Source: a virus. Taken from it: a stretch of 64,000 nucleotides of DNA. The position numbers and the translations under genes are program-made. Positions 3,639-54,131 of the stretch are shown in pieces. The notes below the pieces were generated by a model, which saw only the letters and a list, made by a program, of their open reading frames with translations, was not told where the DNA came from and did no database searches. The DNA lies in IMG/VR virus record IMGVR_UViG_3300009551_000004; one strand, given 5' to 3'. Numbering within the stretch: the stretch's first letter is position 1; every line of letters starts with the position of its first letter.

Positions 3639-3982
3639 TCGCCTGCCTCCAATGACGCCGCTCGTGCCCGTGCGCGCTCCAGTGCTTCGCCCCACGTGAG
3701 CTCGTTGTCCTGGGCAATCTGCGCACAACGCAGCACGCGACCGGCGTACATGCTCAAATTGACTGCAAGGCCAGCCTTGTCGGTCCACGCGTACACGGAA
3801 CGATGCTCCATGGCCACGAGCTCAGGCAGCGGAACGCCCAGCTCGAACAGGACGGTTCCGCCGATGCACTGCGGTGCGTCATCAACCACGTAACGGCATT
3901 CGCGCTTGGTGTCCGCGCCTTCGCGCGCGACCACGAGCTCCAGAACTTCCAGCACGCGCTCGACGCTGATTTGGTCATTCAT
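3635..3982 (-). CDS. Paralog family A protein, copy 4
   Basis: MNDQISVERVLEVLELVVAREG..; ATGA overlaps at both ends. Confidence 0.8.
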   Translation of the reverse strand: MNDQISVERVLEVLELVVAREGADTKRECRYVVDDAPQCIGGTVLFELGVPLPELVAMEHRSVYAWTDKAGLAVNLSMYAGRVLRCAQIAQDNELTWGEALERARARAASLEAGE

Positions 3983-4314
3983 TCGATCTCCCCCATCGCC
4001 TTCGCCTTGGCCATCTCCAGCGCCTCGCCCCATACGCAGCCGGCGTCTTGGGCGACCTGAGCGGTGCGCAATACGCGGCCGGCACCGTCGCTCAAGCTCA
4101 CGCCGCCGACGGACGTGAATGAACTCACGGAAGTCCCCTCCAATTTTACGAGGTGACTGAGCGGCACGCCCAGCTCGAACAGCACCGTGCCGCCGATGCA
4201 ATGCGCCTGGCCGTGGACCACGTACTTGCATTCACGCTTGGTGTCTTCACCTTCGCGTGCGACCACGAGCTCCAGAACTTCCAGCACGCGCTCGACGGTA
4301 ATCTGGTCACTCAT
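3979..4314 (-). CDS. Paralog family A protein, copy 5
   Basis: MSDQITVERVLEVLELVVAREGED..; start chosen by alignment to copies 3 and 4. Confidence 0.75.
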   Translation of the reverse strand: MSDQITVERVLEVLELVVAREGEDTKRECKYVVHGQAHCIGGTVLFELGVPLSHLVKLEGTSVSSFTSVGGVSLSDGAGRVLRTAQVAQDAGCVWGEALEMAKAKAMGEIE

Positions 4315-8609: not shown

Positions 8610-8821
8610 CAGGAGTTCCGCTTCTCGCGCCAGTACGTCCGCGTCGCCGCCTCGGCGTCACCACGCGTCTTGTACGCGTTGTCGCGGCGATTCCAGCCGG
8701 GACCACCAGACATCCCGTGGAAGTCCTCCGCCATGGCGTGCCAGCCGTTGTGCACGGGGTACACCACGCCGCACTTCTCCCCGTTGTCGAGAACGGGATA
8801 ACTCTCTGCTTCCTCTGCCAT
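8609..8821 (-). CDS. Hypothetical protein
   Basis: Start MAEEAESYP after AAAGGAACGGAA; an alternative ATG lies at 8836. Confidence 0.6.
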   Translation of the reverse strand: MAEEAESYPVLDNGEKCGVVYPVHNGWHAMAEDFHGMSGGPGWNRRDNAYKTRGDAEAATRTYWREKRNS

Positions 8822-8832
8822 TTCCGTTCCTT

Positions 8833-9024
8833 TCATTCTTCCGAATTGTACCAGAAAACGAAGCTATTGCACTGGCACTTGATCTCGATGTTACGATCGT
8901 CAATGCGACCAATCAGCGTACCAACGCACCCCGGCACCGTCGGTTCAATCGATTCGACGTGCTCGCACCATGGATGGCCGCAGTGACACACGTCGAACAG
9001 TCGCCGGGATGCCGGGGTGCTCAT
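8833..9024 (-). CDS. Small Cys/His-rich (zinc-binding-like) protein
   Basis: 63 aa with CHCGHPWCEH .. C.C pattern. Confidence 0.6.
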   Translation of the reverse strand: MSTPASRRLFDVCHCGHPWCEHVESIEPTVPGCVGTLIGRIDDRNIEIKCQCNSFVFWYNSEE

Positions 9025-9026
9025 GC

Positions 9027-9164
9027 TCAGTCCAGATTCTTGATCGTCACGCTGTAGTTGACCTGCCCATTCGTGACGTGTACAACGTGTTCGCCGAGCT
9101 GCGTCACATTGTAATCGTACTCGCGCAATGCGCTGATCAGGTCGCGAATGAAGGTCTCATCCAT
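9027..9164 (-). CDS. Small hypothetical protein (45 aa)
   Basis: Fills the gap between 9024 and 9171; below the track cutoff. Confidence 0.4.
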   Translation of the reverse strand: MDETFIRDLISALREYDYNVTQLGEHVVHVTNGQVNYSVTIKNLD

Positions 9165-9170
9165 GTCGGA

Positions 9171-9446
9171 TCACTTCTTCGGACACAGCGGGTCGACGAC
9201 TGTGGTCACCGCGCCGTAGTTGTTGTTGTTGTGGAACACGACGGTGTATCGGATGTCGCCGACGCACTTCGTCGCCAGGTTCGAGAAGCCGTCCGGCATG
9301 GCGATGATCTGCGCGCCGGTCATGTCCTCCCCGCCGAGACGCGGCGCATCCTGAAAGGGCTCAGCCGCCTTCTCCAGGCCGCAGCCGGCAGCCGTGAAGG
9401 CGATCGCGGCGGCAATCGCGCCGACGACAAGAACACTACGCTTCAT
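9171..9446 (-). CDS. Putative lipoprotein
   Basis: MKRSVLVVGAIAAAIAFTAAGC: signal peptide plus a lipobox-like AAGC. Confidence 0.65.
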   Translation of the reverse strand: MKRSVLVVGAIAAAIAFTAAGCGLEKAAEPFQDAPRLGGEDMTGAQIIAMPDGFSNLATKCVGDIRYTVVFHNNNNYGAVTTVVDPLCPKK

Positions 9447-9627
9447 GATCGGTTTCCTTTTCTGTGTAATACGCTTCGAAAATCGGTTCTACGATACGAG
9501 AAAACTTCAGGTACAGCTCGCGATGATCCGGTGACGCGTTATCCCAGTTCAAGTCGGGATGATAACCGTGCACCTGTTCGAACATTGCCTTGGCGGCACG
9601 AAGGACGATGTCCGAATCGGGTTCCAT
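9436..9627 (-). CDS. Small hypothetical protein
   Basis: 63-aa ORF in the track. Confidence 0.6.
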   Translation of the reverse strand: MEPDSDIVLRAAKAMFEQVHGYHPDLNWDNASPDHRELYLKFSRIVEPIFEAYYTEKETDHEA

Positions 9628-9719
9628 CAGTCACTTCCTGTCGCCAGGTTTCGATTAGCCTTTCGCGAGAAACCCCATTCGGCCCGTCCCCTCTGCGGGC
9701 CGAATGGGGTGGTCATGAG

Positions 9720-10115
9720 TCAGACCGGCGCGTGGCTCGACAACTGCACGGTCAACACCGCCGGATCGGCGCACTTCGCCTTCTGCGCCTCGACCATCTG
9801 CCCGTGAACCTCCCAGGCCTCGGCCATGGAACCCGCCCTGAGGCCGCCAACCTTCTTGCCGCACTTGTTGGTCACCAGCGTCTCGAAGATCAGCAGCTGA
9901 CCTTCCGTGCCGTAATTCCGGCCGGTCCACGCCGTGGACACGAAGAACGACGTGCCGATGCAGTCGGCCTTGTCGAACACCTGCGTCTTGGCCACCATGC
10001 GGTAATCGTAATCGTTCAGTAGCTCACGCCACTGCGTCTCGGAGATCTTTTGGCCATTGTGGTCGTAGTGCGTGGTGACCTGGGCCCATACGCGCTCGAT
10101 CTCGTTGATGTCCAC
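9720..10115 (-). CDS. Hypothetical protein
   Basis: 131-aa ORF in the track. Confidence 0.7.
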   Translation of the reverse strand: MDINEIERVWAQVTTHYDHNGQKISETQWRELLNDYDYRMVAKTQVFDKADCIGTSFFVSTAWTGRNYGTEGQLLIFETLVTNKCGKKVGGLRAGSMAEAWEVHGQMVEAQKAKCADPAVLTVQLSSHAPV

Positions 10116-14985: not shown

Positions 14986-15317
14986 CGTTCATCACGCCAA
15001 CCGCGCTCGTGCAGAATCGCCCACTTCTTCGCGATCTCCACGTCCAATTCGACATGCAATACCGCCGCCGTGACGAATGCGGTGATCACCACGTCGGCCA
15101 GCTCGCCAGCCATCTCCTCGAACGTGCCCGTTCGCCGCGCCTCGCCCGCCCAGCGTCGAAACGCGCCGACGAACTCACCCGCCTCCTCGGCCAACGCCAA
15201 CACCTGGCGCGTCTGAGCGGTGTCCGGATTGAACCCGACGGCTTGCAATTTCCGGGCAATGGCGATGCCGACCATCGCCAATTCGCCGACCTCGATCCGC
15301 TCCTGCTGCTCACTCAT
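14982..15317 (-). CDS. mazG: MazG-like nucleotide pyrophosphohydrolase
   Basis: LAEEAGEFVGAFRRW..ELADVVI..I..K...RGW pattern typical of phage MazG-like proteins. Confidence 0.65.
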   Translation of the reverse strand: MSEQQERIEVGELAMVGIAIARKLQAVGFNPDTAQTRQVLALAEEAGEFVGAFRRWAGEARRTGTFEEMAGELADVVITAFVTAAVLHVELDVEIAKKWAILHERGWRDER

Positions 15318-16389
15318 ATTCGGTCACATTCCCCTTGCGCGTCAGGTAGTCGGCCGACACGACCTTCACAATCGCGCGCTCGCCACCCAGCGCATCCGAG
15401 ACGCGCTCCCGCACCGGCCGCACCACGACACCCTCGCGGATGTGCGCCCCGGTGCCGGTGACCTGTTCGCGGCCCGACGCCAGGGACAGAATCGTGTCGA
15501 TGTCGAAGCCGCCCACATAGAGCACTGGCACGAACGGCACGACGCCGTGGAGCAGATCGCCCACCTGGTCATGGTCGGCCCAGAACACCTCACCGTTGAC
15601 GTCCACGCGGATGTCGAACGCGGCATACCCTGGCGTGCCCTTCGTGGTGCCGTACTTCAGATCCTGTACGCCATACACCTCGCCGAAGATCGCCACGCGA
15701 TCGGCCTCCAAATCGGTCAGGATGTTCCGCGCCACCTCTTCGATGTCATACGCGCGCACGGCCCGCCAGTACAGGTTCCGCTCCGACTCCGCGATGGCCA
15801 GACGCTTCTCGGAGAAGCCCTTCGACGTCACGAACAGGCCGCCGTCTTTCGTCACCGTGACGCAACACGCCGAGCCGTGAATCTTCTCCGTGGCGACGAC
15901 GCGCTCTCCCGGCGCGAACACGTCCGGATAGCGCTGAAAATGCTGGATGTCGGTCCACGGCAGCAGATCCGGCGCGGAAATCATAGTTCCCGAGAGATCC
16001 CCGGGCACCTCCGGCACCCACTTCGTGATGCCCAGCGGCTCGGAATAATCCTCGTCGCCGAAGACGCGCGAATTGGCTGCCCAGGAAAGCGTCAATCCGG
16101 CAACCGCCTTCGGCCGGCACACGATGCCCTGGGAGAGCTCACCGCGCAGCCGCACCGCCTTGACGCGATTGGCCTGCTTGCCGGCGAGGCGGCCGACCAG
16201 CCCCAACTCCTCGATCAGCTCCGTCGGCAGGATCGCCTGCTCCGGAATGTAGATCGCGTACTCGCCCGTCTTGTAGACGCCCTTCGGCACCACGGCGCGG
16301 TACAGGCCCACCTGAGCCAGCTCCAGGGCATCCGCATTCGGATGCTCGTGAATCGTCAACCGCTCAGCGGTGACGCGCAGTGTGGACAT
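15310..16389 (-). CDS. RNA ligase with N-terminal OB-fold tRNA-binding-like domain
   Basis: N-terminus ERLTIHEHPNADALELAQVG resembles tRNA_bind/CsaA domains; nucleotidyltransferase motif I EKIHGS. Confidence 0.7.
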   Translation of the reverse strand: MSTLRVTAERLTIHEHPNADALELAQVGLYRAVVPKGVYKTGEYAIYIPEQAILPTELIEELGLVGRLAGKQANRVKAVRLRGELSQGIVCRPKAVAGLTLSWAANSRVFGDEDYSEPLGITKWVPEVPGDLSGTMISAPDLLPWTDIQHFQRYPDVFAPGERVVATEKIHGSACCVTVTKDGGLFVTSKGFSEKRLAIAESERNLYWRAVRAYDIEEVARNILTDLEADRVAIFGEVYGVQDLKYGTTKGTPGYAAFDIRVDVNGEVFWADHDQVGDLLHGVVPFVPVLYVGGFDIDTILSLASGREQVTGTGAHIREGVVVRPVRERVSDALGGERAIVKVVSADYLTRKGNVTEYE

Positions 16390-30659: not shown

Positions 30660-30692
30660 GGAACCCCGGGACGTCTCCAGTCCCGGGGTTCC
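30660..30692 (-). terminator. Hairpin downstream of the tRNA-like region
   Basis: 12-bp stem GGAACCCCGGGA / TCCCGGGGTTCC. Confidence 0.55.
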
Positions 30693-30774
30693 AAGTATTC
30701 ATCGTTTTCAAGTCGATGATGCCATTTTGTCTGCGCACGTCAACGGCGGTACAGCACGCGAATCAATCTGAGGG

Positions 30775-31024
30775 CGTCATGCTCTGCCTATTGAGCTACC
30801 AATCCATGGTGCAGGATCCCGACTGACACCGAGATCCTGCTGACAACGTGACGCGGAGAAGCGGAAACGCGCCACATTGTAAAGGGGTGTGAAACCTACG
30901 CATTGGCACAGATTGCCGCGCAGTCCCACGTGCGCCACTTCCTCCGTTTCCGTCGATGTAGTCGGAAAGGTACAAGCTGGAGTGGCGAGAGGATTGGGCC
31001 GGGCTCGAACCGGCAACCCTGACG
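30775..31024 (-). ncRNA. Permuted tRNA-like unit 2 (3' half 31024-30990, 5' half 30805-30775)
   Basis: The 3' half reads CGTCA-GGGTT-GCCGG-TTCGAGC-CCGGC-CCAATCC-T. The 5' half reads GGATTGG-TA-GCTC-AATAGGCA-GAGC-A-TGACG. Acceptor pairs 7/7 and anticodon stem 5/5, but only across the permuted halves. Confidence 0.5.
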
Positions 31025-31091
31025 TTCTAGTTCACGTGCGGTCGATTTGACGTGATGGCGGGGGGTTTGAGTTTTGACCAAGAATCTAAGG

Positions 31092-31186
31092 TTGGGAGTG
31101 CGTCGCCTCTGCCAATTGGGCTACCACACCACGAAGCTCGAAGAGGTGAGAGGTGTGGGAAGGGTTCGAACCTCCACTGAAACGCA
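31092..31186 (-). ncRNA. Permuted tRNA-like unit 1 (3' half 31186-31151, 20-nt linker, 5' half 31130-31092; anticodon loop CTCCCAA)
   Basis: The 3' half reads TGCGT-TTCAGT-GGAGG-TTCGAAC-CCTTC-CCACACC-T. The 5' half reads GGTGTGG-TA-GCCC-AATTGGCAG-AGGC-G-ACGCA-CTCCCAA. Confidence 0.55.
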
Positions 31187-31246
31187 CTGACGTTCAGGCT
31201 GAAACTCAAGTTCAGCTTGTGGTCAGGTACTACCTTATCACGTGCG

Positions 31247-31290
31247 CGCGGGTCAGGCAATGTGCATGTGCGAATTGCCTGACCCGCGTC
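31247..31290 (-). terminator. Hairpin terminator after 31295..32029
   Basis: 14-bp stem GCGGGTCAGGCAAT / ATTGCCTGACCCGC. Confidence 0.7.
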
Positions 31291-53355: not shown

Positions 53356-53429
53356 GCTGGTGTAGCTCAATTGGAAAGAGCACCGCCCTGTCGAGGCGGG
53401 AGTTGCGGGTTCGAGTCCCGTCGCTAGCG
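53356..53429 (+). tRNA. tRNA-Asp (GTC)
   Basis: Canonical cloverleaf with anticodon arm CCGCC-CTGTCGA-GGCGG. Confidence 0.85.
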
Positions 53430-53486
53430 CAAAGTTGGAACTAGTCTTTCCCCGAAAACCAATCTTCCAATGTTCCAACTTTATCC

Positions 53487-54032: not shown

Positions 54033-54131
54033 GGAGGATTGCCAGAGCGGCCAAATGGGCGGGACTGTCAATCCCGTGGTACAGCGAGTCCGGGGTAGCT
54101 GTATCCGTTGGTTCAAATCCAACATTCTCCG
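54033..54131 (+). tRNA. 99-nt class-II-like tRNA, Ser-like body, anticodon loop CTGTCAA (GTC)
   Basis: GGAGGAT-TG-CCA-GAGCGGCCAAA-TGG-G-CGGGA-CTGTCAA-TCCCG, then a 30-nt variable arm, then GTTGG-TTCAAAT-CCAAC-ATTCTCC-G. Confidence 0.5.

Follow-up and report, generated by a model that had tools for sequence, protein, structure and literature searches.

Two tRNA-like units lie on the minus strand of a viral DNA stretch of 64,000 nucleotides (nt), from the IMG/VR record IMGVR_UViG_3300009551_000004 (the window). They fall within two adjacent regions, RNA A (unit 1, type A; 31065..31218) and RNA B (unit 2, type B; 30736..31054). Their constant upstream neighbor is a gene on the same strand (31295..32029) for a 244-residue protein of the family DUF7873 (PF25283; Pfam, 351 bits, E = 4e-105). 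The units are likely to be the tRNA-like heads of two structured noncoding RNAs that resemble YrlA-class Y RNAs and form a conserved cassette with DUF7873. They would be tRNA mimics and not decoding tRNAs. An earlier note, made from the sequence alone, had taken them for permuted or split tRNA genes.

The cassette recurs in relatives. A blastn search of the 1-kb region against 50,697 phage records gave no match, so relatives were reached through the DUF7873 protein only. The first-round set contained 15 DUF7873 loci, six from IMG/VR and nine from GenBank phages of Gordonia, Arthrobacter, Pseudanabaena, Vibrio, Rhizobium, Klebsiella, and Ralstonia. One or two of the tRNA-like units (modules) were present downstream of DUF7873 at all 15. 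The six IMG/VR loci each contain two modules, about 85 and 230 nt past the DUF7873 stop codon. Their acceptor helices are fully paired though the sequences vary, and the acceptor loops are usually 4 to 11 nt long. A second survey covered 160 further loci from viral contigs and actinobacterial genomes, of which 155 were usable, with a strict descriptor and a range of 700 nt. Modules were found downstream of DUF7873 on the same strand at 142 of the 155 loci, upstream at 6, and on the opposite strand at none. The gene and the RNAs are linked.

The cassette is also found in bacterial chromosomes. In Streptomyces sp. P1-3 (L176), the DUF7873 gene lies amid core chromosomal genes, outside any prophage. 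No other protein family was present in more than 17 of 80 chromosomal neighborhoods, and neither a TROVE protein nor an RNA-processing enzyme was a recurrent neighbor there. On these grounds, DUF7873 and its RNA or RNAs are a self-contained module. In phages, the cassette lies as a rule beside or inside tRNA arrays. An ADP-ribosylglycohydrolase gene was considered as a partner. In Streptomyces sp. P1-3 it precedes DUF7873 by 66 nt in the same orientation (8769-9935), and it is adjacent in only 2 of the 80 loci. The adjacency is probably incidental. Within Rfam 15, Pfam, and the searchable literature, the coupling of such RNAs to DUF7873 appears to be undescribed.

The layout reported for the window was reproduced. 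The pieces of both units were found on the minus strand at the coordinates given before, with identical letters. Both contain a perfect 7-bp acceptor helix (GGTGTGG/CCACACC in unit 1 and GGATTGG/CCAATCC in unit 2), and both have the permuted order of T arm, 3' acceptor strand, spacer, 5' acceptor strand, and D arm. A chimera of the unit 1 5' half and the unit 2 3' half has a mismatched acceptor stem, in agreement with the earlier note. The check by rotation, run with ARAGORN, gave clean cloverleaves for both units. None of 500 dinucleotide shuffles of either unit was called a tRNA. A descriptor scan of the full window retrieved the two units and one artefact inside the tRNA cluster. Markov-simulated windows contained a mean of 0.295 descriptor matches, and 7 of 200 contained two or more. 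A chance origin had been judged improbable, and this holds. The main grounds are now conservation, with the module pair behind the same gene in 15/15 first-round and 142/155 further loci. Ordinary intact tRNAs at this locus in related genomes would have refuted the layout according to the earlier note; the relatives carry the same permuted order instead. Selection acts on the arrangement, which is not debris.

Where a tRNA has its anticodon loop, these RNAs have a long stalk. They are of two recurrent types, with A ahead of B. The type A D arm has a 3-bp stem and a 10- to 11-nt loop, and the type B D arm has a 4-bp stem. A type B consensus was made with RNAalifold from a plain MAFFT alignment of 48 natural sequences, with no structural input. 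It contains an outer helix (P1), an internal loop with AUCGACC on the 5' side opposite CUUAAACG on the 3' side, a 9-bp middle helix (P2), and then the T, acceptor, and D helices. Compensatory changes are present at 29 of the 31 pairs. In the alignment, 96.8% of cells are paired, versus 41 to 46% in slid registers, and none of 500 shuffles reached any of the observed measures. In the stalk helices, which the descriptor does not select, pairing reaches 97.9% and 90.4%, and covariation is seen at every one of the 15 pairs (P1, 6/6; P2, 9/9).

Constrained folds of single RNAs from relatives gave the same shape, a long stalk with a head, for types A and B alike. The type A head covaries, and the motifs that flank it are strongly conserved. 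The type A 5' flanks (31187-31218 in the window; L001 to L005 and L096 to L111) contain four or five hexamer-periodic repeats of the type NNCUGA, e.g., GCUGAA GUUGAG ACUGAA GCUGAC. The 3' strand of the type A stalk contains a conserved CUCAGAYUCUCGCUCCAG...CUCAGC. A covariance model of type B (R1) retrieved unit 2 of the window in two pieces with the insert between them and both stalk strands included. The pieces were 31090-30919 (33.6 bits, E = 1.2e-8) and 30853-30732 (24.3 bits, E = 5e-6); the E-values of this custom model are rough. At tRNA-tRNA junctions in the tRNA cluster of the window, R1 matched the head only and never the stalk.

These helices bear directly on decoding. A reading of the units as decoding tRNAs with the anticodons CCC or CTC is not supported. 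In the family consensus, the inner stem leads into an internal loop and two covarying helices, and there is no 7-nt loop. A U33/R37 loop is not conserved, and the candidate anticodons vary arbitrarily among orthologues. Since the inner stem leads into covarying helices and not into an anticodon loop, ligation of the halves is not needed. The RNA ligase gene that the earlier note had named as able in principle to seal them (15310-16389) is a real Rnl-type gene, but nothing ties it to these RNAs.

The head has the marks of a tRNA beyond its helices. Tertiary features outside the descriptor selection were counted in 207 modules. The Levitt pair, 15-48, is compatible in 204 of them (174 A-U and 30 G-C), and shuffles averaged 152 and never exceeded 164. 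U8 is found in 205/207, A14 in 202/207, and the pair G53-C61 in all 207. Both window units have A15-U48 and U8-A9. The discriminator is able to pair with N-1 in only 25 of the 207 modules, and thus the acceptor helix ends at 7 bp. N-CCA is encoded in register in 66/207 modules (~32%), versus about 2% expected by chance. A host convention was considered as the source of the encoded CCA and rejected. The tRNA genes of Phendrix and Mimi mostly lack CCA, and their modules encode it. This independence from the phages' own tRNA genes points to selection for a tRNA-type 3' end or for the RCCA contact of RNase P.

The acceptor loop is the variable part of the module. Its length ranges from 6 nt up to the 185 nt of the window, and the inserts are unrelated to each other. 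Taken with the tRNA-like ends and the precedent of the Mycobacterium smegmatis YrlA, this variation suggests that the acceptor loop is excised and that the RNA becomes two pieces. An apparent acceptor loop of 186 nt at L049 was an artefact of two units using one acceptor strand. The type A acceptor-loop inserts of L080 and L081 (105 to 106 nt) are themselves tRNA-like, with the D arm AGCTCAACTGGATAGAGC, the T arm GTGGGTTCGAATCCCGC, and a 13-bp closing helix. They are a tRNA-like element nested within a tRNA mimic.

The type A D arm also varies between phages. It is GCGGAAUUGGUAGACGC in Pam2 (L010) and in Klebsiella phage vB_KpM_FBKp24 (L013), and it is GCGAAACUGGUAGACGC in phiRSL1 (L015). The discriminator is A in all three type A modules, and FBKp24 also encodes CCA. 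The D arm of Pam2 and FBKp24 presumably matches that of Escherichia coli tRNA-Leu.

The permuted layout is an established RNA design. YrlA RNAs contain a stalk formed from their 5' and 3' ends and a tRNA-like module in the order T arm, acceptor-like stem-loop, and D arm (Chen et al. 2014, PMC4201824). Their discoverers likened them to circularly permuted tRNAs (Wang et al. 2018, bioRxiv 10.1101/312249), and YrlAs have been reported from 22 bacteriophages. The layout is therefore not without precedent in phages, contrary to what had been supposed. The YrlA of M. smegmatis, with an acceptor stem of 7 bp, is an RNase P substrate in vitro, and its cleavage and CCA tailing occur in vivo (PMC4201824).

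Sequence searches gave weak matches to the same class. In a permissive Rfam search, YrlA (RF02553) was the sole match over unit 1, with 18.1 bits (E = 0.88). The alignment covered the T arm, the acceptor-like stem, the D arm, and the 7-bp inner stem. Unit 2 orthologues from L001 to L006 and the Streptomyces chromosomal copy matched the full YrlA model with 28 to 39 bits (best E = 3.5e-5). At the place equivalent to the YrlA motif GNCGAAN0-1G, type B reads GGAUCGACCG, and some of its sequences read GGAUCGAACG. The YrlA and type B motifs have CGA(A) as a common core, and type B has A for the first G of the YrlA motif.

The RNAs described here share with YrlA the stalk, the head of T arm, acceptor-like stem, and D arm, the tRNA tertiary nucleotides, and a Levitt pair that covaries. 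In both groups, one or two RNAs closely follow a protein gene that lies on their strand, and both groups occur in phages. The 7-bp acceptor stem is shared with the M. smegmatis YrlA, for which the RNase P cut and the CCA tail are known. They differ in the constant neighbor, which is DUF7873 here and Ro60, a TROVE protein, there. The 5' motif is AUCGACC (family consensus, GGAUCGAMCG) here and GNCGAAN0-1G there. Among the modules captured by the descriptor, which requires 7 bp, almost all have an unpaired discriminator and 32% encode CCA; in most YrlAs the acceptor stem is short and closed, and CCA is lacking. Two conserved types, A and B, and acceptor-loop inserts of up to 184 nt also set them apart.

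In the window, RNA A consists of a 5' strand of hexamer repeats, an inner stem, the tRNA-like head, and a conserved 3' tail. Its motifs AAGCUGAA... and ...AGAUUCUUGGUCAAAACUCAAAC align to the family consensus. The 5' hexamer-periodic region, AAGCTGAACTTGAGTTTCAGCCTGAACGTCAG (31187..31218), is of the NNCUGA type that is kept in type A orthologues. It contains what the earlier note described as an isolated anticodon-arm-like hairpin. That hairpin is not isolated, as the region is the 5' strand of the unit 1 stalk in relatives. The 5' strand of the inner stem, AGTGCGT (31182..31188), forms a perfect 7-bp helix with the 3' strand, ACGCACT (31097..31103). A 5-bp stem with the anticodon loop CTCCCAA had been proposed here. 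The inner stem is 7 bp long, and part of that loop (the bases CT) is therefore paired.

The T arm of RNA A, GGAGG-TTCGAAC-CCTTC, lies at 31159..31175, and T48 just upstream of it forms the Levitt pair with A15. The 3' strand of the acceptor helix, CCACACC (31152..31158), is paired at 7/7 positions with the 5' strand, GGTGTGG (31124..31130). The acceptor loop between them (31131..31151) contains the discriminator T and 20 nt and is a probable excised spacer. Its counterpart in first-round relatives is 4 to 9 nt long. U8-A9 and the D arm, TA GCC-CAATTGGCAGA-GGC, are at 31105..31123, where the 3-bp stem and 11-nt loop are the hallmark of type A.

RNA B consists of the whole stalk and head with a 184-nt insert in the acceptor loop, and its native fold has z = -3.0. 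The 5' strand of P1, CACGTCAA (31047..31054), forms a perfect 8-bp helix with TTGACGTG (30736-30743). The internal-loop motif of the 5' strand, AUCGACC, follows at 31040..31046. The 5' strand of P2, GCACGTGAA (31031..31039), pairs with TTCGCGTGC (30754-30762) over 9 bp with one G-U. The inner stem strand CGTCA (31020..31024), formerly labeled the 3' strand of an anticodon stem, pairs with TGACG at 30775-30779. The T arm is GCCGG-TTCGAGC-CCGGC (30998..31014). The acceptor helix is made of CCAATCC (30991..30997) and GGATTGG (30799..30805). U8-A9 and the D arm, TA GCTC-AATAGGCA-GAGC, are at 30781..30798. The 3' side of the stalk (30744..30774) contains an asymmetric loop, CCCTCAGATTGA, the 3' strand of P2, and an internal loop, TGTACCGCCG. 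The family consensus for this side is ...ACUGAUCC...CUUAAACG....

The acceptor-loop insert of RNA B (30806..30990) contains the discriminator T and 184 nt. It is predicted from its sequence to form four hairpins, and it is present in this genome only. Neither the other loop inserts nor the rest of the window contains a relative of it. This, and the lack of an Rfam intron match, led to the rejection of a mobile element or intron as its source.

Hairpins flank the two RNAs. A long perfect hairpin at 31248..31287 (minus strand), just past the DUF7873 stop codon, had been taken for the terminator of that gene. It has no U-tract and was not called by a terminator scan. A perfect 13-bp hairpin behind RNA B (30660..30692, minus strand) may mark the end of the RNA transcription unit. 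A hairpin is present at this position in L001 to L004, L007, and L008, about 45 to 150 nt past the unit 2 D arm. In most close relatives it contains a conserved loop, GGAUAU or GAUGGAUAU; the window hairpin does not. Its role may be that of a terminator, or it may represent a third conserved RNA element. The span reported before, 30775-31216, does contain both units, but the features reach from about 31218 to 30736, and the 13-bp hairpin lies beyond them. A scan for transcription signals retrieved no sigma-70-type promoter or intrinsic terminator bounding the RNAs.

DUF7873 is a compact protein. Of its 150 best-scoring representatives, almost every one has a single domain and a length of about 245 residues. 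Both termini of the confident AlphaFold2 model (pLDDT, 83.7; pTM, 0.69) consist of long helices, and the conserved basic stretch RTKKVPRNHVK lies on a long beta-hairpin. Foldseek searches of the PDB and BFVD with this model retrieved no similar fold (TM-scores, <0.3). Many weak matches were to Cas7-type subunits, but at TM-scores of about 0.1 they carry no meaning. Profile searches of the PDB, PHROGs, and PADLOC gave no match. DUF7873 is not a Ro60 ring.

A working scheme can be proposed for the cassette, in which the architecture, the conservation, the covariation, the tertiary signatures, and the linkage of gene and RNAs are observed, and the processing, the binding by DUF7873, and the biological role are predicted. 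The RNAs would be transcribed downstream of DUF7873, possibly jointly with the gene. The 5' and 3' regions of each RNA would pair to form a long stalk where the anticodon arm of a tRNA would sit. The head of T arm, 7-bp acceptor helix, and D arm would adopt the L-shape of a tRNA. RNase P may then cleave just 5' of the 5' acceptor strand. Trimming of the acceptor loop may stop at the discriminator, and CCA would be either encoded in the gene or added later. Two RNA pieces would result, kept together by base pairing in the acceptor, inner, and stalk helices, and the 3' end would be of the tRNA type. A protein, most plausibly DUF7873, would bind the stalk at its conserved internal loop, and the head would engage or sequester a factor that recognizes tRNAs. 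The earlier idea of split molecules survives in part, as the acceptor strands may become free ends and the mature RNA may be in two pieces, but no joined decoding tRNA would be made.

A more far-reaching proposal goes beyond the reading of the units as YrlA-like tRNA mimics. DUF7873 and the RNAs might form a new ribonucleoprotein that is independent of Ro60. RNase P and CCA processing would make the RNAs into anticodon-less, two-piece mimics with a free tRNA-type 3' end, and the particle would serve phages and actinobacteria to engage or divert a tRNA-handling enzyme. We put this forward tentatively and hold it to be possible but, on balance, doubtful. The 3' end of the mimic could also be aminoacylated. 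The D arm of type A is tRNA-Leu-like, its discriminator is usually A73, and CCA is often present; leucyl-tRNA synthetase (LeuRS) can read such features with no anticodon.

Several points weigh against the mimic reading or limit it. The descriptor preselects the T, 7-bp acceptor, and D helices, and their perfection in the survey is thus partly guaranteed. The stalk of type A, which is rich in repeats, was not recovered at the consensus level in the MAFFT alignment. In the window itself, the unit 1 stalk and the 3' internal loop of unit 2 have diverged from the family consensus, and this copy could be partly degenerate. The Rfam scores of the relatives against YrlA are 25 to 39 bits, with 29.1 for the Streptomyces chromosomal copy, and all are below the gathering threshold of 69. 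A control tRNA dimer scored 29.4 bits on the same model. With scores of 18 to 39 bits against a threshold of 69, and with a tRNA dimer at 29, homology to YrlA is not established over convergence from tRNA. The DUF7873 model contains no recognizable RNA-binding fold, and the protein has an isoelectric point of 6.3. That DUF7873 binds the RNAs is a prediction from genomic linkage. The processing, stability, and transcript boundaries set out above are likewise predictions from sequence.

Other explanations were weighed against the same evidence. The units could be ordinary YrlA members that work with a host Ro60 (Rsr), with the DUF7873 linkage secondary. The layout of T arm, acceptor-like stem, and D arm on a closing stalk fits this, and so does the CGA motif of the 5' strand, which lies where the outer helix meets the internal loop, a place comparable to that of GNCGAAN0-1G in YrlA. 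Some actinobacteria, e.g., M. smegmatis and Gordonia, have both Ro60 and YrlA (PMC4201824). However, no TROVE protein was found among the 13 largest open reading frame (ORF) products of the window (eight searched against Pfam and five against PADLOC only) or within 10 kb of DUF7873 in Streptomyces sp. P1-3, and none recurs in the 80 neighborhoods. Published YrlAs have Ro60 as a same-strand neighbor at a distance of up to 4 kb (PMC4201824). The Rfam scores are never near the gathering threshold, and the motif is not an exact GNCGAA. A Ro60 partnership is therefore unlikely. A conflict or toxin-antitoxin-like module, in which the RNAs neutralize DUF7873 as in type III systems or act alone as decoys for host defenses that attack the tRNA acceptor end or elbow, would account for an autonomous two-part cassette that is present in unrelated chromosomal contexts and in many phages. 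It would also suit the position beside phage tRNA arrays and the hexamer repeats of RNA A. But DUF7873 has no PADLOC or PHROGs match, no nuclease or toxin fold was detected in it, and nothing connects the cassette to a specific defense system. In known type III systems the RNA precedes the protein, and the order here is the opposite. We consider such a module quite improbable.

Genuine permuted or split tRNA genes, whose halves are joined or annealed to decoding tRNAs such as Gly-CCC or Glu-CUC, perhaps by the phage RNA ligase, would explain why the rotated sequences, and never their shuffles, form clean cloverleaves. The 7-bp acceptor helix, free discriminator, and frequent CCA resemble real tRNA ends, and an Rnl-type ligase is encoded at 15310-16389. 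Against this, the 48 type B orthologues contain two further covarying helices and no conserved 7-nt loop. The loop bases CT of unit 1 are paired, and the anticodons are arbitrary among orthologues. The cassette is also present in chromosomes and phages with no associated ligase. There was no Rfam intron match, and no joining signal of the intron or bulge-helix-bulge (BHB) type was seen, with no search aimed at BHB motifs. In Cyanidioschyzon merolae, some green algae, and Thermofilum, permuted genes give decoding tRNAs through a circular intermediate with a BHB at the anticodon-loop junction (PMC3978253). The modules are like these in having the 3' half upstream of the 5' half, an intervening sequence that links the acceptor strands, and an expected RNase P-type processing. 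They differ in the covarying stalk that replaces the anticodon loop and in their occurrence in phages and bacteria. Bacteria are not known to have the archaeal/eukaryal splicing endonuclease. Split tRNAs of Nanoarchaeum equitans and Caldivirga are similar in that the functional molecule may be two paired RNA pieces; they come from separate genes and are joined by a splicing endonuclease and a ligase, whereas the modules are permuted at one locus and need no joining. Decoding tRNAs are a very improbable outcome here. Permuted two-piece transfer-messenger RNA (tmRNA) genes of alphaproteobacteria and cyanobacteria have a segment excised and give two base-paired pieces. Two-piece tmRNA-like molecules in ribosome rescue would match the gene order of permuted ssrA genes, which place the T arm, the 3' acceptor strand, and CCA first, then an intervening segment, and the 5' acceptor strand last, and L005 gave a weak partial match to cyano_tmRNA (23 bits). 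The alanine identity pair G3-U70 is, however, present in only 4/207 modules (the window units have U3-A70 and A3-U70), and the D stem is complete, unlike that of tmRNA. No pseudoknots were seen, and there is no SmpB context. No Rfam tmRNA match was present in the window, and the models stayed below threshold. Visual inspection of the alignments showed no conserved tag frame; a systematic ORF search was not made. We regard a tmRNA role as extremely unlikely. Finally, tandem tRNA remnants, rearrangement scars, or attP-type tRNA fragments could imitate the pattern, as a T arm followed by the D arm of the next tRNA does, and the tRNA junctions of the window match the R1 head. Modules are nevertheless at the same position in 142/155 loci across phyla, their acceptor helices are perfect despite sequence change, and the tRNA junctions match the head only and never the stalk. 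Conservation and extensive covariation, including that of the Levitt pair, effectively refute debris.

Annotation tools handle these modules poorly. No canonical tRNA in native order was found at the locus with Rfam, at the gathering threshold or at E values up to 10, and ARAGORN called no tRNA on native unit 1. A "tRNA-Ser(tga)" call by ARAGORN at 31150-31239 is a weak miscall, with the acceptor stem paired at 4/7 positions. In Klebsiella phage vB_KpM_FBKp24, the GenBank "tRNA-Sup-TTA" at 3913-3992 is a misannotated module with a mismatched acceptor stem. Both miscalls are seeded by the T arm of the module plus an upstream hairpin. Across the nine GenBank phages, the module region is unannotated, has tiny ORF calls on top, or is miscalled "tRNA-Sup-TTA."

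Two other regions of the window were noted. A 99-nt tRNA at 54033-54131 (plus strand; Rfam, 49.3 bits) was missed by default ARAGORN. It is class II-like, with a variable arm of about 30 nt and the anticodon loop CUGUCAA (GUC, Asp). With introns permitted, ARAGORN called it a tRNA-Asp with a 17-nt intron. A normal tRNA-Asp(GUC) is present at 53356-53430. On the minus strand, a gap of about 840 nt with no convincing ORF (32030-32872) separates DUF7873 from a transposase-like gene (32873-33748; phrog_4285, E = 5e-88).

What seems to be novel here, within the sources named above, is a very widespread, unannotated pair of YrlA-like tRNA mimics that is tied to DUF7873 and not to Ro60. DUF7873 comprises about 2,600 clusters at 50% identity, and the actinobacterial genomes that contain it number at least 564 and the GenBank phages at least 75. 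A recurrent annotation error can be flagged, in which the modules are left unannotated, lie under small ORF calls, or are labeled as odd or suppressor tRNAs. A new Rfam family would be warranted, and the RNAs would give a first functional lead for this Pfam domain of unknown function. They add a large set of natural variants of the YrlA-like design. The cassette would pair one RNA design with a different, compact protein partner, and its tRNA-end features are far stronger than those of most YrlAs. The tRNA-Leu-like D arm of type A raises the question of whether such mimics are charged by LeuRS. The cassette offers a testable system for what such mimics bind, and it suggests that phage tRNA arrays contain more than tRNAs.

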